Assembly: GCA_965660625.1 (NCBI GenBank) | Contig: CBFIAR010000002.1 | Location: 12,946-76,945, forward strand | Length of the DNA stretch: 64,000 nt | Origin: Glaciecola sp. | GTDB lineage: Bacteria > Pseudomonadota > Gammaproteobacteria > Enterobacterales > Alteromonadaceae | Direction of reading: 5' to 3' | Part shown: positions 1 to 11,835 of the stretch, piece by piece | Layout: each line of letters opens with the position of its first letter | Position numbering within the stretch: position 1 is the stretch's first letter | The notes under the pieces: model-generated | What the model was told of the DNA's origin: nothing | The model's input: the letters and a program-made list of their open reading frames with translations, nothing else | Databases searched by the model: none | Program-made: the position numbers and the translations under genes

Positions 1-1643
1 TGCGCCGAATCAGGCAGTTCGTCATTTAGCCAATGGGGATATTTACCCCCTTCGATCGGGTTAATCACCCCCGCTAAATGGCCGGAACCTGCGAGCACAA
101 AACGACTCTCACCCGACACTAATTTAGTTCCTTTGTAAGCTCCTTGCCAAAGAACGATGTGATCAGCAACAGTAGATAAAAAGTAGCTGGGCATATCAAT
201 TTTGCCTAAATCAATCGGCACTCCATCAATAATAACGGCGCCAGGGTCCTTTAGTTTGTTTTCCCAATAGGTGGTGCGCATATATTGTGTGAAGCATGCT
301 GCTGGGATGTTGGTGGCATCACTATTCCAATACAATATATCAAATGGCGCAGGGTCTTTACCCTTAAGGTAATTCTCTATAAAAAATGACCAAAATAAGT
401 TGTTTTCACGCAGTAGACTGAAGCTCATGCCGATTATTCGGCCATCAAATACGCCTTTTAATTCCGCGTTCTTCTCAATCATCGGCAACATGTCTTCAGA
501 GAAGTAATTTCCAACTTCGCCAGGCTCACTAAAGTCTAGCAAGGTCGTTAAAAAAGTGAGCGAAGCGATTGAATCGTCATTAATGGCCCGTAAATAGGCA
601 GCGGTCATTGCCAGCAAAGTACCGCCAACGCAAAATCCGGTTAAATTGACCTTTTTTTGGTTCGTTATGGCTTTTACCTGCTCAATTGCCGCAAGTGGGC
701 CTTTGCGCATGTAATCTTCGAAGTCATTGTCTGCTAACTTGGATGTGGGGTTTACCCAAGAAATCATGAATACTGAATAGCCTGCATTCAGCAAGCCCAT
801 TACCATCGACTTCTTCTCATCCAGATCAAGAACATAGTATTTGTTAATAAACGGTGGGGTTATCAGCACTGGCACTTGATAGTGCTTTTTTTGAATGGGA
901 GTGTAATGAATAAGCTGAATAAGTTCGTTTTGAAATACAACCTTTCCGGGTGTATAGGCTAAATTTTCACCTAATTTAAAAGCATCGCTGTCAGACTGTC
1001 GCATTTTGAATGCTTCCAAAGGACTTTTTTCTAAGTCCTCAAGAAAGTTCTGCATACCTTTAACTAAATTTTGACCTTTACTGTTGATAACTTCCTCACA
1101 AACCTCTGGGTTTGTTAGTACAAAATTAGTCGGTGAGAGCGAATTCACATACTGGCGAGTAAAAAATTTGGCTTGCTTTGCCGCTTTTTCATCACTGAAC
1201 TCAATTGCATCGATCATGTTGCTGAGCATATCGGCATTAGCTAAATAAGATTCTTTTATGTACCGAAATACCGGGTTTTTTTCCCAATCACTGTGCGCAA
1301 ACCTCCGGTCATTGGTTTTTTCTTTTGATGCAGCGGCTGCCGGATTTTCGGTTTTGTTGTTTTCGGCTAAGCTCTGTCCCAACATTGCTTTAGAAGCTTG
1401 TTGCCACAAATCAGTTTGTTTTTGCATGTATTGCATTTGCTGTTGAATGAGTTTATTCGAATCAACTTTAATATCGCCGTTTAACAAGGCTGCTAACTTT
1501 TGCGGGTCAAACATCCCCGGCACCGATGCTCCGGCGCCTTCTGCTGTTTTGTTTGTTCTTGTTAACACCTCTTGAGCCAGTGCATTAAATACGGTCGCAT
1601 ATTTTTCTATATACGCTAAAACTTCGGTTTCATCCGTACTCAT
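1..1643 (-). CDS. phaC: Class I poly(R)-hydroxyalkanoate synthase, partial (3' end runs off the window start)
   Basis: Hand translation of the minus strand gives the lipase box VNLTGFCVGGTLLA (about 600-650), PVLITPPFINKYYVLDL and FDILYWNSDATN. ATG at 1643 follows a GGAG RBS. Absent from the ORF track because no stop falls in the window. Confidence 0.93.
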   Translation of the reverse strand, partial: MSTDETEVLAYIEKYATVFNALAQEVLTRTNKTAEGAGASVPGMFDPQKLAALLNGDIKVDSNKLIQQQMQYMQKQTDLWQQASKAMLGQSLAENNKTENPAAAASKEKTNDRRFAHSDWEKNPVFRYIKESYLANADMLSNMIDAIEFSDEKAAKQAKFFTRQYVNSLSPTNFVLTNPEVCEEVINSKGQNLVKGMQNFLEDLEKSPLEAFKMRQSDSDAFKLGENLAYTPGKVVFQNELIQLIHYTPIQKKHYQVPVLITPPFINKYYVLDLDEKKSMVMGLLNAGYSVFMISWVNPTSKLADNDFEDYMRKGPLAAIEQVKAITNQKKVNLTGFCVGGTLLAMTAAYLRAINDDSIASLTFLTTLLDFSEPGEVGNYFSEDMLPMIEKNAELKGVFDGRIIGMSFSLLRENNLFWSFFIENYLKGKDPAPFDILYWNSDATNIPAACFTQYMRTTYWENKLKDPGAVIIDGVPIDLGKIDMPSYFLSTVADHIVLWQGAYKGTKLVSGESRFVLAGSGHLAGVINPIEGGKYPHWLNDELPDSA

Positions 1644-1662
1644 ATTCATTCTCCATTCTATG

Positions 1663-1902
1663 CTAGTCGGACTTTTTCTGTCCTTTTAAAAAACCGTCCA
1701 TCATTTTTTGGTAGGCAGTAAAGCCTGTGAGTCCATTTTCTAGTGATGGTTTGATGAATGTTTCAAAGGCTTTCTGTGGATCCTGCGCGCATTTCTCTGC
1801 GAGTTCTTCTGTTATCGTTGTGTGCAGTTGACTAAAATCTGGAAGTCCAAAGATTTCGCGTGCTTCGGCAGGACTCAGTTCTAATTCAATTTTGACTTTC
1901 AT
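1663..1902 (-). CDS. Small hypothetical protein upstream of phaC (DUF6489-like)
   Basis: 79-aa ORF MKVKIELELSPAEAREIFGLPD with a GGAG RBS, co-oriented with phaC and 19 bp from its start. The family name is from recollection of the N-terminal motif. Confidence 0.7.
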   Translation of the reverse strand: MKVKIELELSPAEAREIFGLPDFSQLHTTITEELAEKCAQDPQKAFETFIKPSLENGLTGFTAYQKMMDGFLKGQKKSD

Positions 1903-2292
1903 AGGATTTTCTCCAGAATGACCTAATGCAAATTAAACAGTTTAGTACAAATAGACAGCATTTTTATCAAGATTCTTTTCATCAACAGCTCGTCAAATTA
2001 TCAACGATGATAGCGTATTTTATTGTTGCTGAACTTTTAGCCTATGCCGCGGCCTAAACAATGTCTATAGTTTTCGACTATTGTAGTAGGTTAATTCTGC
2101 ATTCTCATGCACTTAGTTATGTTTAACAGCGCATGGGGCTCTATTTATTTAATAGATGGACGACTCACTAGACTAACAAAACCTCTCGCTTAGCGACAAT
2201 ATACGATTACAACGCGGCAATTTATCACTAGAATGCGCTATAAAGTAAATTGAATAAACACGCATCAAAACTCATAAAGAGAAAAAAACGCT

Positions 2293-4626
2293 TTGAAGAT
2301 TAAAGAATTACCTCTATTGCCCTTTAGGTGGCTAAAACGCCACTTTTGGAAACTGTTCATTGTTGCTTTAGCCGCCTCTGTATCCTATGTGATCTATGTT
2401 GATGCTCAAGTAAAACAACGATTTGAGGGCAACAAGTGGCAAGTGCCTGCGCAAATATTTGCACGCCCATTAACGCTGCAAGTCAAACAAGAGATTACAA
2501 TTGGGGAAGTAAAAGATGAATTGAGCTTATTGGGATATAGGCGAGTTTCTAGTGCGAAATTGACAGGTGAGTATCAGACCTATTCAAATCAACTTCGCAT
2601 ACAACGTAGAGCCTTTCATTTTCCAAATGGTTATGAACCAGAGCGAGATATACGCATTACTTGGCAAGACGAACGTATTGCTAAAATCGAATATTTACTA
2701 GGGACAGGTACTCATCCAACGGCAAAGTCGATTGCATTGACGCGCCTAGAACCTTGGTTAGTGTCTCGCTTAGTGAATGGGCTTGAAGAAGACCGCATGT
2801 TGGTTGGTAAGGAGGACATTCCCTTATTATTACAAAAAGCATTGGTGATCGTTGAAGACCGCGATTTTTATCAGCATCATGGTGTTGCACCAACATCGAT
2901 CATTCGCGCGTTTTTTGCAAATATCGTCGCAGGCAGAACGGTACAAGGTGGCAGCACTTTAACTCAACAGTTAGCCAAGAACTTCTTTTTGACCCGAGAG
3001 CGCTCCTACATTCGAAAGGCTAAAGAAGCGGTCATGGCATTAGTGATAGACGCTAGATATTCGAAGGAAGAAATCATTAATGCCTATATAAATGAAGTAT
3101 TTCTTGGGCAAAATGGCGCGGTAGCAGTTCATGGGTTTGGTTTGGCAAGTCACTTTTATTTTGACAAACCACTACCTGAACTCTCTGTTCCTGAAATAGC
3201 AACGTTGATAGGCTTGGTAAAAGGGCCGTCGTTTTACTCGCCCAGTAAACACCCTCAACGTGCGTTAGAGCGTCGTAATGTTGTGTTGCGCTTGCTGTTT
3301 GAAGCCAACGAGATTACTAGCAAAGATTATGCGGGTTTTGTCGCTGCGCCTTTGAATACCGCGAGTAGTGAAAGTTTAGCCAGTGGCAAGCATCCCGCCT
3401 TTATGGATAAAGTGCGTGACGAACTCAATACTGTGATTAGCCGTCGGTCAGAGCAATTATCAGGGGTAAAACTTTATACAACCTTAGATATAAACGCGCA
3501 GCGTCGCGCGGAAGCGGCAGTGAAAGAGCAAGTTGATAGTATCGCAAAAAAACGTGACCAAGCAGACTTAGAAGCGGCAATGGTTGTCTCTGATGTTCAA
3601 AGTGGTGAAATTAGAGCCATAGTGGGTGGTAAAACAGCTGGATTTAGCGGCTTCAACCGTGCCTTGAATGCTTACCGTCCTATTGGCTCTTTGGTCAAGC
3701 CGGCGGTTTATTTATCAGCACTAGAGGACCCAGTGCATTACAATTTAGCGACTATGCTTGAAGATACTCCAGTTAAAATGCGCAGTACCGGCGGTCAGTA
3801 TTGGGAGCCGTTAAATGCCGATAAAAAATTTCGTGGGCAAGTATCTTTAATTGAAGCGCTGACCAAATCATATAATGTGCCAAGCGTAAAATTAGGTATA
3901 GCAGTTGGTTTAGAGGAAGTGGCTTACACAATTAATCGTCTTGGTGTTGATAAAGACATAACGCTAGTGCCTGCGCTTACTCTCGGAGCTATTGATTTAT
4001 CTCCTTTGCAGGTCAATCAAATGTATCAAACCATTGCCAATAATGGGGTTATGAATCAACTGCATAGCTTAACAGCGGTGACATCAAACGAAAATGAACT
4101 ACTGTATTTGCGCGACGTTGCAAGTGAAATTAGAGCCGATGAATCGGCGACGTATTTAATTAATTATGCACTGCATAAGGTTACGCTTGAAGGCACAGCA
4201 AAAGCGGTAAGAAAGACTTTTCCAAATATCAATATGGCAGGAAAAACCGGCACAACAAATGATTATAGAGACAGTTGGTTTGCGGGCTTTGACCGAAACT
4301 TAGTGACCAGCGTGTGGATGGGCTCGGACGATAATGCGCCTGTTAATCTATCGGGTGCAAGCGGCGCAATGCAGGTTTTTATTGCTTTTCAGAAGAGGCA
4401 GTCACCTAAAAACCTATCTCGACGCTTTCCTGAAGGTCTCGGTATAGTGCATTTTGATGCTATAACAGGACAGCTTTCAGCGCCTAGTTGTGGTGATATT
4501 CTAAGTGTTCCCGCAATTCTCAGCGCGCTACCCGAAACTGCTCGCGGCTGTAATGGCCAACCCGCCGTTAGAATGCAGCCTAAAAAGAAACCCAAGTCGT
4601 TCTGGGAGAAGCTGTTCGGAGAGTAA
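2293..4626 (+). CDS. mrcB: Penicillin-binding protein 1B (bifunctional transglycosylase/transpeptidase)
   Basis: N-terminal TM segment, UB2H-like region, GT motifs EDRDFYQH and QGGSTLTQQLAKN, TP motifs SLVK, SYN and KTG. TTG start. Confidence 0.95.
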   Translation: MKIKELPLLPFRWLKRHFWKLFIVALAASVSYVIYVDAQVKQRFEGNKWQVPAQIFARPLTLQVKQEITIGEVKDELSLLGYRRVSSAKLTGEYQTYSNQLRIQRRAFHFPNGYEPERDIRITWQDERIAKIEYLLGTGTHPTAKSIALTRLEPWLVSRLVNGLEEDRMLVGKEDIPLLLQKALVIVEDRDFYQHHGVAPTSIIRAFFANIVAGRTVQGGSTLTQQLAKNFFLTRERSYIRKAKEAVMALVIDARYSKEEIINAYINEVFLGQNGAVAVHGFGLASHFYFDKPLPELSVPEIATLIGLVKGPSFYSPSKHPQRALERRNVVLRLLFEANEITSKDYAGFVAAPLNTASSESLASGKHPAFMDKVRDELNTVISRRSEQLSGVKLYTTLDINAQRRAEAAVKEQVDSIAKKRDQADLEAAMVVSDVQSGEIRAIVGGKTAGFSGFNRALNAYRPIGSLVKPAVYLSALEDPVHYNLATMLEDTPVKMRSTGGQYWEPLNADKKFRGQVSLIEALTKSYNVPSVKLGIAVGLEEVAYTINRLGVDKDITLVPALTLGAIDLSPLQVNQMYQTIANNGVMNQLHSLTAVTSNENELLYLRDVASEIRADESATYLINYALHKVTLEGTAKAVRKTFPNINMAGKTGTTNDYRDSWFAGFDRNLVTSVWMGSDDNAPVNLSGASGAMQVFIAFQKRQSPKNLSRRFPEGLGIVHFDAITGQLSAPSCGDILSVPAILSALPETARGCNGQPAVRMQPKKKPKSFWEKLFGE

Positions 4627-4701
4627 CGCCAACGGTATTTCTTGCCTCATGTATCAGCTGTAATGTAATTAACACTGCCCCCTTTATTTTTGTAATGCTA
4701 C

Positions 4702-4747
4702 TGCGTCCTTATGGGGCGAATACTTCTAATTGCACCATTGTGGTGCT
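4702..4747. promoter_or_regulatory. Two NtrC binding sites upstream of glnK-amtB
   Basis: TGCACCATTGTGGTGCT (4731-4747) is near-consensus TGCACCAWWWTGGTGCA. A weaker site TGCGTCCTTATGGGGCG lies at 4702-4718. Confidence 0.8.
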
Positions 4748-4806
4748 CATCTGCATGTCTATAACGATAAAATAATCCTTATGTTACTGATTTAAAAGAC
4801 TATTAA

Positions 4807-5214
<408 letters not shown>

Positions 5215-5244
5215 GTCGCGCAGCCAGAAAACCGGAGAACAAAA

Positions 5245-6564
5245 ATGGAAATCACATTCGAACTTGGGTATGCATTAGATACCTTTTACTTCTTAATCTG
5301 TGGCGCACTAGTAATGTGGATGGCGGCAGGTTTTACCATGTTAGAAGCGGGTTTAGTCCGCGCTAAAAACACCACTGAAATATTAACCAAAAACGTAGCA
5401 CTGTATGCCATCGCTTGTATCATGTACATGATATGCGGTTACAGCATTATGTATGGTGGAGATGACTTTAGTTTCTTCCTCAAAGATATTGTAGCTGACG
5501 GTGCAACAGGCGCTGCGGAACCTGCTACATATTCACCTTCAGCAGATTTTTTCTTCCAGGTGGTATTCGTTGCAACAGCAATGTCAATCGTATCTGGCGC
5601 GGTTGCTGAGCGTATGAAGCTTTGGGCATTCTTGGCATTTGCAGTGGTGTTAACGGCTTTCATTTATCCAATGTCTGGTTCTTGGACTTGGGGCGGCGCT
5701 GACGTATTTGGTATGTTTAATTTAGGCGCACCAGTACCAGAAGATGCTGCTGCTGACTGGATGCCAGCGTTCCGTTTCTCAGACTTTGCTGGTTCAGGTA
5801 TTGTGCATATGGCGGGTGCTGCTGCAGCATTGGCTGGTGTATTAGTGCTTGGTGCTCGTAAAGGTAAGTATGGCGCAGACGGTCGTGTTAACGCGATCCC
5901 TGGTGCAAACTTGCCATTAGCTACATTAGGTACATTCATACTGTGGATGGGCTGGTTCGGTTTCAACGGTGGTTCTGTTTTAGCGACAGCAAGTGTTGAA
6001 AGTGCGAATGCGGTTGCAGTTGTCTTTATGAATACTAACATGGCTGCTGCCGGTGGCTTAGTCGCTGCATTATTGCTAGCGAGAGTGCTTTTCGGTAAAG
6101 CTGATTTGACGATGGCATTGAACGGCGCATTAGCTGGCTTGGTCGCGATTACTGCAGAACCGTCTACACCAACCCCTTTGCAAGCAACACTGTTCGGCGC
6201 TTTGGGCGGAGCTCTAGTGGTAGGAAGTATTTTAGCCTTGGATAAATTGAAGATTGATGATCCAGTCGGTGCAATCTCTGTTCACGGTGTCGTTGGCTTC
6301 TTAGGTCTGATGTTAGTGCCATTCACTAATCCGTTAACTGTCGATGTTGCTGGCGGTGGAACTGGTGGTGCAACGTTTGTCGGACAACTTGTGGGTGCTT
6401 TGACCATTTTCTTCTGGGTATTCGTGACGAGCTTAGTTGTTTGGTTAGCGCTTAAAGCCATCATTGGTATACGAGTTACTGAGGAAGAAGAGTTTGAAGG
6501 CGTAGACATGAGTGAGTGTGGATTAGAAGCTTACCCAGACTTTACTACTAGCCGTCAAAACTAA
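5245..6564 (+). CDS. amtB: Ammonium transporter
   Basis: Multi-TM protein with DFAGSGIVHMAGA, WMGWFGFNGGS and DDPVGAISVHG motifs. Confidence 0.97.
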   Translation: MEITFELGYALDTFYFLICGALVMWMAAGFTMLEAGLVRAKNTTEILTKNVALYAIACIMYMICGYSIMYGGDDFSFFLKDIVADGATGAAEPATYSPSADFFFQVVFVATAMSIVSGAVAERMKLWAFLAFAVVLTAFIYPMSGSWTWGGADVFGMFNLGAPVPEDAAADWMPAFRFSDFAGSGIVHMAGAAAALAGVLVLGARKGKYGADGRVNAIPGANLPLATLGTFILWMGWFGFNGGSVLATASVESANAVAVVFMNTNMAAAGGLVAALLLARVLFGKADLTMALNGALAGLVAITAEPSTPTPLQATLFGALGGALVVGSILALDKLKIDDPVGAISVHGVVGFLGLMLVPFTNPLTVDVAGGGTGGATFVGQLVGALTIFFWVFVTSLVVWLALKAIIGIRVTEEEEFEGVDMSECGLEAYPDFTTSRQN

Positions 6565-6691
6565 TTTGATTTTGCTTAAGAGCCGGCCACGGACAGCTAG
6601 CTCTACGAAGAAAACTCAAGGAAGATGCAGGGAAGCACTAATTGGCGTGAAAATAACAATAAGCACACGCCAATAGTTATTGTTAACAATC

Positions 6692-6718
6692 AGCCTCGAT
6701 TAATCGGGGCTTTTTTTT
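6692..6718 (+). terminator. Rho-independent terminator of glnK-amtB
   Basis: AGCCTCGA-TTAA-TCGGGGCT hairpin followed by a T8 run. Confidence 0.8.
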
Positions 6719-6963
6719 ATGCCATTCTATTTATAGCCCTTATATTTTCTGTCGCTCTTGCAACTGATTTACGCTTATTAAACACAGGCGTTCCGTTGAC
6801 CCATTCTTATAATACTAACCATGACATTTCTTACGGTGGTGAATCGTGGCAAAAACTAGATATTTATCGAGCCCGAGATGCCGACGAAAATACGCCGGTC
6901 ATCGTTTTCTTTTTTTGTGGTGGCTGGTCTTGGGGATATAAAGCCTATTTTGAATTTTTGTAA
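6715..6963 (+). pseudogene. Fragment of an exported alpha/beta-hydrolase (esterase/lipase), truncated at both ends
   Basis: Hydrophobic signal-like stretch, then LLNTGVP...DISYGGESWQKLDIY...PVIVFFFCGGWSWG, typical of the N-terminus of carboxylesterase-like hydrolases. TAA at 6961-6963 falls before any GxSxG motif, and there is no proper start after the terminator. Confidence 0.65.
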
Positions 6964-6966
6964 TTT

Positions 6967-6996
6967 TGATTACTCTTTAGAAATTATCAGCGGTTA
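6967..6996. repeat. Palindromic-site copy at the island's left junction
   Basis: TGAT-N22-GTTA followed by CT. CAGCGGTTACT (6988-6998) matches CAGCGGTCACT (9224-9234) at 10/11. It lies 7 bp beyond the stop of the 7004-7213 ORF and 3 bp after the hydrolase truncation. Confidence 0.5.
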
Positions 6997-7003
6997 CTGA
7001 GCT

Positions 7004-7213
7004 TTAATAGCATGAATTCGGTGTTGTCCCCGGATTGATCTCGCCACCAAGCTCGTCAGGATCTATCTCTAATTCAAATAATACTGCGCGAACAAATTCA
7101 ATTTGTTCAAGCACTCGTTTGTAGTCGTCACCATACTCATACTTGTTTACTTCTATTGATTGAGGCATGAACGTATATGCGATTTTGAGGGCTTGAAGCT
7201 GGTCTTCGGTCAT
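7004..7213 (-). CDS. Small acidic hypothetical protein (69 aa)
   Basis: MTEDQLQALKIAYTFMPQSIEVNKYEYG... with an AGGA RBS upstream of ATG 7213. The ORF track extension to 7342 looks non-coding. Confidence 0.6.
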   Translation of the reverse strand: MTEDQLQALKIAYTFMPQSIEVNKYEYGDDYKRVLEQIEFVRAVLFELEIDPDELGGEINPGTTPNSCY

Positions 7214-7745
7214 GTTGGTATTCCTTTTTTTTGGCATTTTAAAGAAGCATAGCACAGCAAATTTACTAAGGGACCAGTTTGCAGGCGCAAACCTCTCCAA
7301 AAATACCAGGCGATACCAGCGAGTAGCAACACTAACTATCACTCAATATAGTATACCCTGCTTGGTTAACCTTTCACTTTTTTAAGAACGTTCACTGACA
7401 ATTGCGGTTGCTTATTTCAAAGTCGGTTAGACGGCATAAGTAATCATACTGCCGTTATAATTGTGCGAAAATTTTTGCGGCGTAGGCAACCATTTAGATT
7501 GGAAGTTTTGATGGGATGTTGCATATTTCCAGCCTAATTTTGTAGACATTTTTAAAATGGTATTGGACCTTCTTCAGTCGAATGGTGATTTACTGCTCAG
7601 ACAAGCAGATTCACACAACAAAGCTCTGTTCTGCTAAAATAGTTAGTCAGTAAACTCTGAACTGAATACAAACAGCATCTGTTGCATGCAACTGGTATAT
7701 CGTTTATCTTTTGTATAGTTAATAATAAAGTACAGAGATTGTTAG

Positions 7746-8651
7746 ATGGATGAACATGCTTTTACTGTGAAGACCAGAGAGCTTCACAATCACCACTTTG
7801 ATTCTACTATCTGGAACGACTTTCTTTATCGAGACGATGATATTGTTATTTCGACGTACGCTAAGTCTGGGACAACATGGATGCAGCAAATTGTTTCGCA
7901 ACTGCTATTTCCAGGAGAAGCAGACTTGGAAGTTGCTGAGATGTCTCCCTGGTTGGATCTTCGTATACCGCCCAAGGAAGTTAAGTTAGCTGCCGTTGAG
8001 GAGCAGAAGCATCGCCGTTTCATAAAAACACATTTACCGTTAGATGCTGTGGTCTTTTCGGATAAGGCGAAATATATCTACATTGGTCGAGACGGGCGCG
8101 ATGTTCTTTGGAGTCTCTATAACCATCATTCAAACGCCAATGAAGCTTGGTATGATGCTTTAAACAACACTCCTGGTCGAGTTGGTGAAGCTATTGAGCG
8201 GCCGGGCACATCAGTTACCGAGTATTTTGATGAGTGGCTCGCGAAGGATGGGCATCCATTTTGGTCGCTCTGGGAAAATGCTAGGACTTGGTGGTCCATC
8301 CGGAATTTACCAAATGTTCATATGGTACATTTTGCCAATTTAAAAACAGATATGCCGGGCGAAATTCGTCGCATTGCGGCATTCCTTGGTATTTCTATCG
8401 ATGAGTCGAAGTGGGAGAACATACTTCGACACTGCAGTTTTGACTACATGAAAGCAAATGCGGCAAAGAGCGCTCCTTTAGGTGGTGCATTCTGGGAGGG
8501 GGGCGCTGAAACGTTTATTCATAAAGGAACGAATGGACGTTGGCGTGAGCACCTATCAGTTGAGCAAATTGAGCAATACGAGAAGCGTGCGATGGCAGAA
8601 TTAGGTCTAGAATGTTCACGCTGGCTGGCAACAGGTAAGCTAGACGTGTGA
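7746..8651 (+). CDS. PAPS-dependent sulfotransferase (cytosolic SULT-like domain)
   Basis: 5'-PSB loop ISTYAKSGTTWMQQIV, catalytic-region IKTHLP, 3'-PB motif IYIGRDGRDVLWS, C-terminal KGxxGxW (HKGTNGRW). Confidence 0.92.
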   Translation: MDEHAFTVKTRELHNHHFDSTIWNDFLYRDDDIVISTYAKSGTTWMQQIVSQLLFPGEADLEVAEMSPWLDLRIPPKEVKLAAVEEQKHRRFIKTHLPLDAVVFSDKAKYIYIGRDGRDVLWSLYNHHSNANEAWYDALNNTPGRVGEAIERPGTSVTEYFDEWLAKDGHPFWSLWENARTWWSIRNLPNVHMVHFANLKTDMPGEIRRIAAFLGISIDESKWENILRHCSFDYMKANAAKSAPLGGAFWEGGAETFIHKGTNGRWREHLSVEQIEQYEKRAMAELGLECSRWLATGKLDV

Positions 8652-8699
8652 GTATTCTTGTTCCGGCAGGCTTGTACATAAAAAATCGTTGTAGCGGGT

Positions 8700-9235
8700 G
8701 TCAATGAACGCTAGCTCTTGAGAAAAAGTTGTGTCACTTCAGAAAGCTTGGAGAGTTTGCCCTCGACTATTATATTGATAACATTTCGGCTCTCTAGCCG
8801 CTATAGACTGAAGGAAAGCTTAGGTATAATTCTCCAGAGGCATTATGTTTAAATCAAATTTGTCCGCAATGGCTCTCTACGATAAGTTTTGCTATCGCAA
8901 ACCCCAAGCCAGAGTTTTGGAGTTATAATTCAGACAGAATGCTAACATTCCCTATGGTTGTTGGTTGTTTAGAGCGATAATAACTAGTGAAACCTTCAAT
9001 GACTACAAATTGTCATGTTTTGCCTAATCAATTCGGTCTTCAATACGGCAAAAGGGGATTCACGCCACTCAAATTCGTATGAGAGCTTTGTGCCAATAAC
9101 CGACTTTTACCAACATTCATCTGAATTGGTGCTTTGGGCAGATTGCCGGCATTGCCATAAAGCGCTATTTCTGGAGTGGAATGTGTATTTGACCAGAATA
9201 TCTGACCGGCAAGTCCCATCCAACAGCGGTCACTC
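8700..9235. repeat. Run of short degenerate palindromic sites with no coding cargo
   Basis: Related elements near 8705-8738, 8780-8803, 8861-8886, 9000-9015, 9044-9070, 9080-9105, 9127-9151 and 9203-9232. GCTTTGTGCCAATAACCGAC (9085) and GCTTTGGGCAGATTGCCGGC (9131) are 14/20 identical; GGCTCTCTA occurs at both 8788 and 8871. Confidence 0.55.
9203..9232. repeat. 30-bp palindromic site A (TGAC-N10-CATCCAA-N5-GTCA)
   Basis: TGACCGGCAAGTCCCATCCAACAGCGGTCA, 18 bp beyond the recombinase stop. 19/30 ungapped identity to the site at 10332. Confidence 0.7.
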
Positions 9236-9250
9236 GCTGTTCACACAAAC

Positions 9251-9681
9251 TTAAATATCGATGCTCTCTGATATCTCAAGTGCGTCATCTACTTCAATGC
9301 CCAGATATCGAACTGTACTTTCTAACTTCGAGTGCCCGAGGAGCAATTGACAAGCCCTAATGTTTTTAGTCTTTTTGTAGATCAAAGAAGGTTTGGTGCG
9401 CCGCATTGTATGAGTGCCATAGTGAGTCCCTTCTAATCCAATTGAATTTATCCACCCATCGACAATTCGGCTATATTGCCTAGTAGACAGATGCGGTGAA
9501 TTCTTGATACGAGATTTGAAAAGGTAATCGGAGTTATCTAGAGCATCTTTTTGAATCAATGCCTTTATTGCTGCTCGAGTCTGCTCAGTAATTTCAAACT
9601 GAACAGGCCTGCCAGTTTTTGACCAACGAGCTTTCCCTTATTCCAAGGCTCTTTTTTCTTGTAAACAGCAAGTGGGTACAT
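9251..9681 (-). pseudogene. Tyrosine recombinase (non-IntI, PWNKG-type N-terminus) inactivated by an internal deletion and frameshift
   Basis: GGAG RBS, then ATG 9681 encoding MYPLAVYKKKEPWNKGKLVGQK. At CAAAAA (9616-9621) the frame shifts into KTGRPVQFEITEQTR...HTMRRTK...LLLGHSKLESTVRYLGIE. HxxR, H and Y are present; the first catalytic Arg box is missing. Confidence 0.88.
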
Positions 9682-9748
9682 AAGTAGTCTCCAGAATTCA
9701 GATAAATAGCAGTCTTTCAGAATATGATTGCAATACAAATGCCATGTA

Positions 9749-9766
9749 TAATACTATTTAATACTA
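9749..9766 (+). promoter_or_regulatory. Probable antitoxin operator/promoter of the TA operon
   Basis: TAATACTA direct repeat with a 10-bp period (9749-9756, 9759-9766) overlapping TATAAT at 9747-9752. Confidence 0.5.
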
Positions 9767-9789
9767 CCAATAAAGCTGTGAGTTGAATT

Positions 9790-10041
9790 ATGAGCATGAT
9801 TAAAAAGAGCATCACTGTTACTGATAAACAAAATGAGTGGATGCAAAGTCAGCTAAAAAGCGGCGAATACGCGAGTGACAGCGAATTACTGAGAGACTTA
9901 ATACGCAAAGAGCAACGTCGAAACGAAGACATTAATGTCATCAGAGAGGCGCTAATTGTGGGTGAGCAAAGTGGCTATTCTACGAAATCTGCTGAACAAA
10001 TTTTGCAGGAGTTTAAAGAAAAGCGCCGCATAAATGTCTGA
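9790..10041 (+). CDS. parD: Type II antitoxin, ParD-like ribbon-helix-helix
   Basis: KKSITVTDKQNEWMQSQLKSGEYASDSELLRDLIR RHH pattern and an acidic C-terminus. Overlaps the toxin start by 8 bp. Confidence 0.9.
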   Translation: MSMIKKSITVTDKQNEWMQSQLKSGEYASDSELLRDLIRKEQRRNEDINVIREALIVGEQSGYSTKSAEQILQEFKEKRRINV

Positions 10042-10315
10042 CTATAGGCTAACTCTTGCCGCAGAAATTGACCTTGCTGACATTTTGGAATATGGCGAGG
10101 CACATTTTGGGACTATTGCGGCACTTGAGTTTTATGAAGGTCTACTGAGCGTATTCCCTAAAATCGTTAATAATCCTGCTCAATTTGCCCGAATTGATGA
10201 AGTGCGCAAAGGATATCGCAGAGCAATCTATCAAACGTATTCCATCTACTTTATCGAGCGCGAAAACTGTATAGAGATAACCCGTGTTATACGCAAGTAT
10301 CCAGTAAAACTATAA
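10034..10315 (+). CDS. parE: Type II toxin, RelE/ParE family (not the topoisomerase IV subunit)
   Basis: YRLTLAAEIDLADILEYG...NPAQFARIDEVRKGYRRAIYQTYSIYF...IEITRVI, downstream of the antitoxin. Confidence 0.88.
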   Translation: MSDYRLTLAAEIDLADILEYGEAHFGTIAALEFYEGLLSVFPKIVNNPAQFARIDEVRKGYRRAIYQTYSIYFIERENCIEITRVIRKYPVKL

Positions 10316-10331
10316 CTAGACTGGTATAAAA

Positions 10332-10361
10332 TGACAGACAGTGCACATCCAATTATTGTCA
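10332..10361. repeat. 30-bp palindromic site B (TGAC-N10-CATCCAA-N5-GTCA)
   Basis: TGACAGACAGTGCACATCCAATTATTGTCA, 16 bp after the toxin stop. The arms extend to AATGACA/TGTCATT. Confidence 0.7.
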
Positions 10362-10423
10362 TTCAGCCAGTCGTAAATTAGTACTCCGTTTGCGACACTA
10401 GTCTACAAAGAATTCAAGCAAGA

Positions 10424-10690
10424 ATGCATGTGCTGCCAACGCAACAAAGTGGGACATATAAACGCCGCCGACCAGAAACAACATTGCTATGTCAATTGGT
10501 TTAACGTTACTATCCAGACTTTACCGCAAACTTCGCCGACCAAGGCAAATATTTACGCAAGTATGTTGAACGTGAGTTTGAAGAGTTCTTGCGTTATGAT
10601 CGTCTAGAGCACGGCGTTTTAGGCGTGATATGTGGTGATTGCAAGTACAAAACATTCGTTGCTTTTAGCTGCAAACGGCTCGGATTTTAG
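10424..10690 (+). pseudogene. IS91/ISCR-family rolling-circle transposase, N-terminal zinc-binding relic
   Basis: Hand translation: MHVLPTQQSGTYKRRRPETTLLCQLV*RYYPDF...YVEREFEEFLRYDRLEHGVLGVICGDCKYKTFVAFSCKRLGF*. This parallels the ISCR2-type pattern YERHxPxxTLLYQLVE...EF..GRLE.GF..V.C..C....VAFSCKRRGF. In-frame TAA at 10502. Confidence 0.85.
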
Positions 10691-10965: not shown

Positions 10966-11835
10966 TTAGCCTTTCATCACAACGGTACGATTACCCGTTA
11001 AAAAAACTCGGCGACTAACGTGCAGGCGAACCGCTTTAGCCAACACTACACGCTCTACGTCCTGACCCACACGGACCAAATCTTCTGGATAAAAAGTATG
11101 ATCTACATCTTGTATGCCTTGAGTAATGATCGGCCCTTCGTCTAGCTCATTATTGATATAATGCGCTGTTGAACCGACCATCTTTACTCCCTTTTCCCAT
11201 GCTTGATGATAAGGCTTAGCTCCCTTAAAGCCAGGCAATAGCGAGTGGTGAATGTTAATCGCCCAACCATCTAAGTATTCACACATTTCAGGAGACATTA
11301 CCTGCATGTAACGAGCAAGGACGACTAAGTCAATCTCATATTTTTCTAACAATTCACGAATTTGAGCCTCTTGTTGAGGCTTTGTTTCTTTACTTATGGG
11401 TAAATGGTAGTAGGGAATACCGTGCCAATCGGCTAACTCTTTTAAATCTGGGTGATTTGAGATAATCACTGAGATTTCAATGCCCAGCAACTGCCCCGTA
11501 CGGTGGCGATAGAGCAAATCGTTCAAACAGTGATCATATTTAGACACGAAAATTGCAGTCCGCTCTGGATGATCCGGTGCCTTCAGCGTCCAGTGCATGT
11601 CAAAACGGTCAGCCTCTGGCTGGAAATCCTCAGCAAATTTATTAGGGTTTAAACTTTCGGATTGAGAATGAAATGCAATTCGTATGAAAAATTGTGCGGT
11701 GGTCTTGTCGTCAAAAGACTGTATTTCGTCTACGTAAAGGCCATTCCCAGCCATAAAATTGGTACACACGTCCACTGTTCCAAGGACGCTTGGGCAACGT
11801 GCTGCAAGCACCCAACTGTTTTCACTTGTTTTCAT
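10966..11835 (-). CDS. purU: Formyltetrahydrofolate deformylase (sarcosine-oxidase-cluster type)
   Basis: ACT domain, then VSKYDHCLNDLL, SNHPDL, LARYMQV, INIHHSLLPGFKGAKPYHQA and EGPIITQ. Confidence 0.95.
   Translation of the reverse strand: MKTSENSWVLAARCPSVLGTVDVCTNFMAGNGLYVDEIQSFDDKTTAQFFIRIAFHSQSESLNPNKFAEDFQPEADRFDMHWTLKAPDHPERTAIFVSKYDHCLNDLLYRHRTGQLLGIEISVIISNHPDLKELADWHGIPYYHLPISKETKPQQEAQIRELLEKYEIDLVVLARYMQVMSPEMCEYLDGWAINIHHSLLPGFKGAKPYHQAWEKGVKMVGSTAHYINNELDEGPIITQGIQDVDHTFYPEDLVRVGQDVERVVLAKAVRLHVSRRVFLTGNRTVVMKG

Follow-up and report, generated by a model that had tools for sequence, protein, structure and literature searches.

A probable decayed module of a minimal tyrosine recombinase and its predicted pseudo-palindromic sites in Glaciecola sp.

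The window analyzed here is a stretch of 64,000 nucleotides from Glaciecola sp. (C2:12946-76945; C and L denote contigs of this genome and comparison loci, respectively), whose genome is 3.7 Mb in size with 42% G+C. Near its left end, a 4.3-kb accessory island extends from amtB (5245-6564) to purU (10966-11835, − strand). The island carries a pseudogene of a minimal tyrosine recombinase, a parDE toxin–antitoxin (TA) pair, the 5′ stump of a gene for a transposase of the ISCR/IS91 family, and, at 9203-9232 and 10332-10361, two members of a family of short pseudo-palindromic sites that we name S. A sequence-only reading of this DNA had described a decayed cassette-capture system parallel to integrons, with a small non-IntI tyrosine recombinase and four palindromic sites, one just downstream of every stop codon whatever the orientation of the gene. 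We find that the region 9036-10368, composed of noncoding filler, a first S site (S3), the recombinase gene, parDE, and a second S site (S4), is probably a decayed small mobile module.

The recombinase pseudogene (9251-9681, − strand) matches PF00589 (E 7.9e-10 on its C-terminal open reading frame [ORF]) and is read in two frames. Relative to L030, a metagenome locus with an intact recombinase that is 98% identical in amino acids to the window copy, the gene has an internal deletion of 188 nt at ∼9616-9621 (L030 7067-7254) and a shifted frame, as the earlier description of a decayed copy would have it; owing to the deletion, the region of the first arginine is absent. Intact relatives are nearly all 207 amino acids long and 62-99% identical to the window fragment. 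At least 8000 scored homologues were recovered in a protein search, with hosts that include Alteromonadaceae metagenomes, plasmids of Pseudomonas, Klebsiella, Pantoea, Thauera, and Cupriavidus, and members of many phyla, and they are annotated generically as “tyrosine-type recombinase/integrase.” Residues R44, K86, H155, R158, H181, and Y190, corresponding to the catalytic R..K..HxxR..H..Y, are invariant in homologue alignment A1. Elsewhere in the genome, this recombinase family is represented once more by a short fragment beside suf/isc genes at C34:19642-19872 (62% identity over 42 amino acids).

The kind of enzyme is indicated by the extent of its alignment and by its predicted fold. Its profile hidden Markov model (HMM) alignment to the Xer catalytic domain covers residues ∼38-198 only. 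In the AlphaFold model (predicted local distance difference test score of 73.6), the best Foldseek matches are XerA and XerH (probability 1.00) and Cre, whereas IntI (2a3v, VchIntIA) ranks 28th; a PDB sequence search with the recombinase gave no match. The protein lacks the IntI-type insertion: the model of the IntI family, TIGR02249, reaches 18.8 bits on the window fragment versus a cut-off of 265 and is not listed for the intact proteins P0001 and P0006. The restriction of the alignment to the catalytic domain and the ranking of folds together point to a minimal enzyme of the Xer kind, distinct from integron integrases, consistent with the sequence-only reading in this respect. As modeled, the 207-amino-acid recombinases are essentially an Xer-like catalytic domain with a short N-terminal tail. 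XerA, XerH, and Cre act on sites composed of an arm, a center, and a second arm.

Of the four stretches proposed as sites, all of which had been quoted correctly to the letter, S3 (TGACCGGCAAGTCCCATCCAACAGCGGTCA) and S4 (TGACAGACAGTGCACATCCAATTATTGTCA) have relatives in the genome and elsewhere. Both fit TGAC-N10-CATCCAA-N5-GTCA, but because the pattern was built from these two sites, its test against shuffled sequence is circular and uninformative. They are longer than first noted, extending over ∼9197-9245 and ∼10326-10368, and with extended flanks the motif occurs in ∼13 places in the genome and also adjoins recombinase homologues elsewhere. An HMM made from 12 hand-picked copies, S3 and S4 among the seeds, returns S3 (E 1.5e-9) and S4 (E 1.9e-5) by construction and also finds copies beyond the seed set. 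The right half of S3 (ATCCAACAGCGGTCACTC, 9218-9235) scores 9.8 bits with a general position weight matrix (PWM) made without window sequence, and S3 agrees at 27 of 32 positions, flanks included, with the site that precedes the C51 transposase gene (CGACTGGCAAGTCCCATCCAAAACCGGTCG). Site S3 (9203-9245, + strand) is immediately 3′ of the recombinase gene and consists of left arm TGACCGGCAAGTCC, center CATCCAA, right arm CAGCGGTCACTC, and a short tail. Site S4 (10332-10368, + strand) follows parE and precedes the transposase leader, with left arm TGACAGACAGTGCA, the same center, and right arm TTATTGTCATTC(AGCC). Judging from sequence, the small non-IntI recombinase beside them very probably has S3 and S4 as its cognate recombination sites.

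The other two stretches are not members of the family. The best PWM scores of 6967-6996 and 8705-8738 are -5.4 and 1.7 bits, respectively, and the HMM returns nothing for either. The arms of the former are merely TGAT/ATCA, 4-bp arms at such a spacing being a chance expectation, and the latter is without a true palindrome. All real S sites of the window are on the + strand. Thus, the claim of a site after every stop codon in any orientation fails, and the list of sites was also incomplete, as it passed over two remnants, at 7451-7524 and, in degenerate form, at 9036-9080, as well as the candidate arm at 9701-9718. As for a reading of the four stretches as transcription terminators, only the terminator of amtB (6692-6711) qualifies; stems in the sites are weak and are not followed by a run of T.

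Comparisons across genomes delimit the module. The block from S3 through the recombinase gene and parDE to S4 is also present in L030 and in L120 (Alteromonas sp. P256), where the surroundings differ. The recombinase gene and parDE (9246-10352) are 88-94% identical in the two loci, and inside this module S3 is hypervariable at 56-67% identity. A second hypervariable patch, between the start of the recombinase gene and parD (9701-9718, + strand), is 44-50% identical to L030 and L120 with flanks at ∼90%, and holds a candidate third site arm (GATAAATAGCAGTCTTTC) that scores 11.4 bits with the general PWM, where ∼0.006 such matches are expected by chance in 200 nt. The left arm and center of S4 are 90-95% identical across L030 and L120, whereas its right arm shares 88% identity with L030 and 44% with L120, and beyond it nothing is common. 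The conservation of one arm and the center and the divergence of the other arm indicate that the context switches at the center of S4. The comparison of site-bounded units between strains, proposed in the sequence-only reading, therefore supports it in this respect: identity to L120 falls from 90% to 44% exactly at this point.

At its left border, the shared module includes S2′ (9036-9080, + strand; ..ACGGCAAAAGGGGATTCACGCCACTCAAATTCGTATGAGAG), a degenerate or hybrid S site that aligns with the site after intact recombinase genes in L001 and with the corresponding position of L030; its match to the HMM is weak (E 36). Noncoding filler, X, occupies the space between S2′ and S3 (9081-9202, + strand). 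Positions 9132-9227 of the window are 87.5% identical to C5:104097-104002, with similarity that stops inside the site. In L002 and L006, homologues of the filler come after the recombinase site, and ∼130 nt of it are missing from L030. On the other side of the recombinase gene, parD (9790-10041, + strand) encodes an antitoxin that matches PF03693 (E 1.4e-9) and TIGR02606 (47.2 bits vs. a cut-off of 46.2), and it overlaps the ParE-type toxin gene (10034-10315, + strand) by 8 nt. The window copy of the toxin has no HMM match, and its orthologue in L120 (88% DNA identity) carries PF05016 ParE_toxin; a parD gene followed by an overlapping parE gene, the arrangement expected of ParDE, is present at 9790-10315. 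The local copy of the module is a fossil, the interest of which is confined to the system it points to and the module borders it has preserved.

The S family was characterized in 80 metagenome loci (561 kb), all of which were chosen via the recombinase protein, making the association one-sided. Sites are ∼32-36 bp in size and consist of two ∼14-nt inverted arms about a short center, the layout of lox, FRT, and dif. The consensus is GAACGACCGCTTTT-GGCC-AAAAGCGGTCGTTC, with a GGCC center in most lineages; in the AT-rich lineage of the window, the left arm has 4 additional nt and the center is CATCCAA. An 18-nt weight matrix of the core GGCCAAAAGCGGTCGTTC gives 180 matches at ≥12 bits versus 12 in shuffled DNA, a 15-fold enrichment. 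The stop codon of the recombinase gene is usually followed by a G+C-rich hairpin and then CGGCCA(A/G)AAGCGGTC(G/A)TTC. In 30 of 77 loci, a core on the gene strand is located 20-130 nt past the stop, as against 1 locus for the opposite strand; in 20 of 70, an inverted core is located 40-220 nt ahead of the start, as against 4 for the opposite strand. Cores are concentrated in intergenic DNA (74% vs. 26% of sequence), and back-to-back pairs of cores elsewhere in the loci constitute solo sites, 32-bp palindromes of the form GAA.G.C.GCTTT.GGCC.AAAGC.G.C.TTC. Intact recombinase genes in L081, L041, and L003 are accompanied by cargo separated by sites; in L003 a cytochrome gene is flanked by two S sites. 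Separately, in L001 (2252-5751), glmS is immediately followed by an S site, three small ORFs, a recombinase gene, and a second S site, an island that starts at the classical post-glmS hotspot.

Locus L081 has the most integron-like arrangement seen. Positions 3018-6863 hold five to six units with S cores between them, each with one to two small ORFs on the strand opposite to an adjoining, divergent, and intact gene for a 208-amino-acid recombinase. The sites of integrons, attC, are 57-141 nt in length, have RYYYAAC/GTTRRRY ends, and are recognized as folded single strands, and integron cassettes share a single polarity 3′ of attI and the promoter Pc. An integron-like platform, in which promoterless cassettes, each with one attC-like folded site, are captured at a platform site, would account for arrays of small accessory genes beside a tyrosine recombinase and for cargo of TA-type and accessory-enzyme genes. 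IS91-linked recombinases have also been claimed as members of an integron-like subgroup (bioRxiv 10.1101/542381). We nevertheless consider this explanation highly improbable. In addition to the low TIGR02249 score, absent altogether in intact homologues, and the distant structural match to IntI, S sites are ∼34 bp, do not have the ends of attC, and show no fixed polarity relative to flanking genes, and neither a platform nor a Pc promoter is evident. The predicted single-strand folding of none of the four stretches in the window is better than that of shuffles (z -1.65, -0.64, -0.51, and +2.06). Across 180 sites, arms do not covary: arms of the same site are complementary at 4.73 of 14 positions and arms of different sites at 4.74, which leaves the earlier suggestion of a compensatory arm change unsupported. 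Lastly, the recombinase gene itself moves between sites. What stands of the proposed parallel to cassette capture is that units differ between genomes exactly at sites and that arrays such as that of L081 occur; the features specific to integrons, IntI, attC, and polarity, do not.

Movement of the recombinase gene is apparent from five pairs of elements that are 92-98% identical and located in unrelated contexts. Only ∼740-910 bp are in common, a span that extends from 54-200 nt before the start codon to 42-144 nt after the stop codon. At the left junction of both L091 and L106, a target arm is followed by GGCC and GGTTAGCGACC; at the right junction, GGTCGCTAACC is followed by GGCC and a target arm. 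It follows that the arms of the element form a perfect palindrome and that the target was a pseudo-palindromic S site split at its center. These junctions are as would be expected if a palindromic attP integrated into a palindromic target at the center. The identical protein P0006 is encoded on 11 contigs, with five different sets of neighboring genes among the six places listed. These observations bear on the possibility that the inverted arms form an invertible switch around the gene, as in FimB/FimE-like invertases, and not the ends of a mobile element. Inverted cores do flank the gene in many loci, the protein is of a similar kind in its size of ∼200 amino acids and its weak matches to NF007371 “tyrosine-type DNA invertase,” and the gene is inverted relative to S3 in the window, L030, and L007 as compared to most loci. 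But an element that occurs in many unrelated contexts with its junctions at sites is not expected of a switch, and a switch leaves solo sites and site-bounded cargo unexplained, so we regard an invertase as very unlikely.

Directly beyond S4 are the leader and 5′ stump of a gene for an ISCR/IS91-family (HUH, Y2, rolling-circle) transposase (10369-10690, + strand), which starts with an ATG at 10424, has an in-frame stop, and ends after ∼88 codons. The stump matches NF052416 “ISCR clade Ia” (E 1.8e-14 over 60 amino acids), an assignment to HUH transposases that is made on a 5′ fragment only, and is 68-75% identical in amino acids to copies on C5, C51, and C54. Those three are only ∼74% identical to one another; the copies on C5 and C54 are full, and the latter shares 64% identity with the transposase of ISCR2. 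The genome contains at least seven ISCR-like copies, whether full or partial (C5:91675-93345, C51:1-1465, C54:1640-3245, C40:8370-8490, C4:748-823, C13:90437-91575, and C11:2382-2966), and because several contigs end inside them, these copies break the assembly.

The position of S4 raises an alternative, namely that S sites are terIS ends of ISCR/IS91 elements used by the HUH transposase, that the modules are DNA acquired by read-through from one terIS to the next (one-ended transposition), and that the recombinase is a passenger or accessory. S4 is 56 nt upstream of the transposase ATG, and upstream of the transposase gene is where the terIS of ISCR elements sits (PMC13393415). Its right arm and the leader (TTCAGCCAGTCGTTAATTA...) are conserved on C5, C51, and C54; a motif scan adds C40, with leader and S-like site, and C4, with a leader that no comparable site precedes. 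In plasmid pKD02 of A. macleodii (L111 3835-3852), a core of the general type with a score of 21.5 bits is located ∼150 nt 5′ of an ISCR-like gene. The form of S is also compatible, as terIS has been described as a single imperfect palindrome beside GTTC (PMC13181058), the left end of IS801 begins with GAAC (PMC3189936), and tyrosine recombinases have been remarked to be “found in IS91 and IS3” (bioRxiv 10.1101/542381). In L069, a contig of 1113 nt, the exact oriIS consensus TTTAAACTTCCTATAC occurs at ∼1084, ∼80 nt past the stop of the recombinase gene and just beyond the S site. The sequence-only reading had held that it would be undermined if its sites turned out to be termini of a known miniature inverted-repeat transposable element or insertion sequence, and this is partly the case, in that S4 lies where a terIS would and the motif precedes such genes elsewhere.

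Other observations argue against terIS, and we consider it unlikely as an explanation of the family. In 79 of the 80 recombinase loci, S sites are present and there is no IS91-type transposase within 7 kb. Borders of mobile units are at the center of the palindrome, with arms swapped between units, whereas cleavage of the IS91 type is expected at the outer tetranucleotide; S4 itself has the position and general form of a terIS, but its units border at the center and not the outer end. Neither hairpin stability nor covariation of arms is evident. No oriIS with ≤3 mismatches was found near the copies of this genome in a scan that detected both the ISCR2 control and L069, the window copy ending before that region, and ISCR2 itself has no S core. 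In the case of CR2, moreover, the presumed terIS overlaps an att site in actual use by a tyrosine integrase (PMC9376610), a precedent that makes the terIS view and the recombinase-site view reconcilable. S sites thus share with IS91/ISCR ends a palindrome beside GTTC or GAAC located 5′ of an HUH transposase gene (PMC13181058, PMC13393415), in elements known for capture of adjacent DNA, but differ in where units border, in their abundance without a nearby HUH transposase, and in the absence of a detected oriIS at local copies. Two further arrangements involve these genes. The S core of pKD02 lies between a copy of IS30 and the ISCR-like transposase gene, which is frameshifted, beside a mer operon. 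In L025-L027 (∼850-5720; Alteromonas), ∼4-9 kb upstream of the recombinase gene, there are a Gabija-like pair (OLD-family ATPase and UvrD helicase) and an IS91 stump with an S-type site ahead of it.

The remainder of the island is to the left of the module. An esterase-like ORF at 6625-6963, which ends abruptly in a stop (...VIVFFFCGGWSWG) and matches BD-FAE weakly over the first 30 profile positions only, probably represents an alpha/beta-hydrolase gene, truncated, on the left edge of the island, and a small ORF follows at 7004-7213 (− strand). A sulfotransferase gene (7746-8651, + strand; PF00685, E 1.3e-53) is separated from the recombinase gene by a gene-free stretch of ∼600 nt, and no S site was found 3′ of its stop. 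At 220 nt 5′ of the gene, 7451-7524 (+ strand) is an S-type remnant, the left half of a site (TTTTGATGGGATGTTGCAT...) with the end of the unit upstream. It is 80% identical over 75 nt to C5:91686-91759, directly 5′ of an ISCR-like transposase gene, and neither the HMM nor the PWM recovers a complete site in it. The sulfotransferase gene may be cargo between two site remnants, and its membership in the system is conjectural; by the same token, this region may once have been part of the array. At the other edge of the island, L117 and L119, in which purU is 94% identical to that of the window, have an AlpA-type element downstream of purU instead, which makes the 3′ flank of purU look like a hotspot of insertion.

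We suggest, with moderate confidence, that the site-bounded DNA of the island is a frozen array, the modules of which were once exchanged at double-strand sites through a minimal recombinase of the Xer kind. The recombinase would act on double-stranded DNA at sites of ∼32-36 bp, each with two ∼14-nt inverted arms and a short center, and exchange at the center would leave one unit's left arm joined to the right arm of a different unit. The recombinase’s own element of ∼0.74 kb, here enlarged by addition of the ParDE addiction pair, would insert into existing sites and other DNA units bounded by sites would become exchangeable modules. In this genome, the module adjoins an ISCR-type transposase gene, of which S4 is the 5′ boundary. 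With the recombinase gene lacking 188 nt and the transposase gene reduced to a stump, the array would now be frozen. The existence of the site family, its association with the recombinase, the breakpoints at site centers, and the decay of the genes are observed; that the recombinase is the enzyme acting at S sites, and that its substrate is double stranded, are predictions.

Several observations weigh against this reading. Some concern the window. In this lineage, the orientation of S3 to the recombinase gene is opposite to that in most loci. In relatives of the purU region, synteny with amtB is not conserved, other elements occur 3′ of purU, and no empty site is available for comparison. Others concern the family. 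Sampling of loci via the recombinase makes its association with S sites one-sided, and the elements encoding P0006 have a left junction that is off the center of the site and yielded no consistent overlap sequence. In reference genomes, one narrow site pattern had 12 matches, approximately the number estimated for chance, of which one, in L015 (Paraglaciecola), is a plausible true site; exact patterns are unsuited because the site family is too variable. Finally, the S-type motif ahead of ISCR-type genes on C5, C51, C54, C40, and pKD02 is possibly a terIS cut by an HUH transposase, and the S consensus starts with GAAC and ends with GTTC, the tetranucleotides of the IS91 family.

Among known systems, the proposed exchange of modules resembles, by analogy, the shuffling of dif modules with a dedicated mini-recombinase more than it resembles an integron. 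Modules bounded by dif (pdif) in Acinetobacter plasmids are recombined by XerC/XerD (PMC6449649, PMC13141974, PMC7399989). Like these, S-bounded units are discrete, include TA pairs and accessory enzymes, have short sites of an arm, a center, and an arm, and are found in both orientations with shuffling among replicons, and the recombinase has an Xer-like fold. Unlike the 28-bp dif, in which 11-bp XerC and XerD arms flank 6 bp, S is organized as ∼14-4/7-14, is longer, and is unrelated in sequence, leaving only architecture in common. Dif modules rely on the XerCD of their host, whereas S sites apparently have a dedicated recombinase of 207 amino acids without a full core-binding domain, the gene of which is itself a module of ∼0.74 kb, in a family present in many phyla. 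A second likeness is to CR2-sul2 in GIsul2, where the 5′ boundary of the CR, the presumed terIS, is an att site of a tyrosine recombinase at which the CR unit moves site-specifically (PMC9376610). S4 has the same position relative to a gene of the ISCR clade, a copy of which encodes the protein 64% identical to the ISCR2 transposase. Unlike here, the integrase of GIsul2 is that of a genomic island, targets the 3′ end of guaA, and has 19-bp att sites with core GAGTGGGA; the present recombinase is minimal, its sites are pseudo-palindromes, and the system is known from sequence alone. No published description of it was found in the literature on IS91-linked integrases and small recombinase module systems, which yielded only the remark on recombinases in IS91 and IS3 (bioRxiv 10.1101/542381) and reports of attC with an adjoining ISCR/IS91 element (PMC9229058, PMC12772301).

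The wider proposition is more tentative. It is possible, although we would not call it probable, that 207-amino-acid recombinases and S sites constitute a widespread and self-contained system of module exchange with recombinase-less cargo, and that ISCR-type genes are cargo in some lineages. In that case, those CR elements would have at their 5′ boundaries sites of a tyrosine recombinase and not terminators of rolling-circle transposition. This would bear on whether ISCR/CR elements move by a rolling circle or via site-specific recombinases at their supposed terIS, movement of the latter kind having been shown in one case, CR2 (PMC9376610). A 207-amino-acid enzyme paired with a site of ∼34 bp would also be attractive as a minimal recombination tool. 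If the proposition is true, a very common recombinase, carried on an element of 0.74 kb and acting at ∼34-bp sites, would provide bacteria with a second, integron-independent route for assembling and reshuffling accessory genes.

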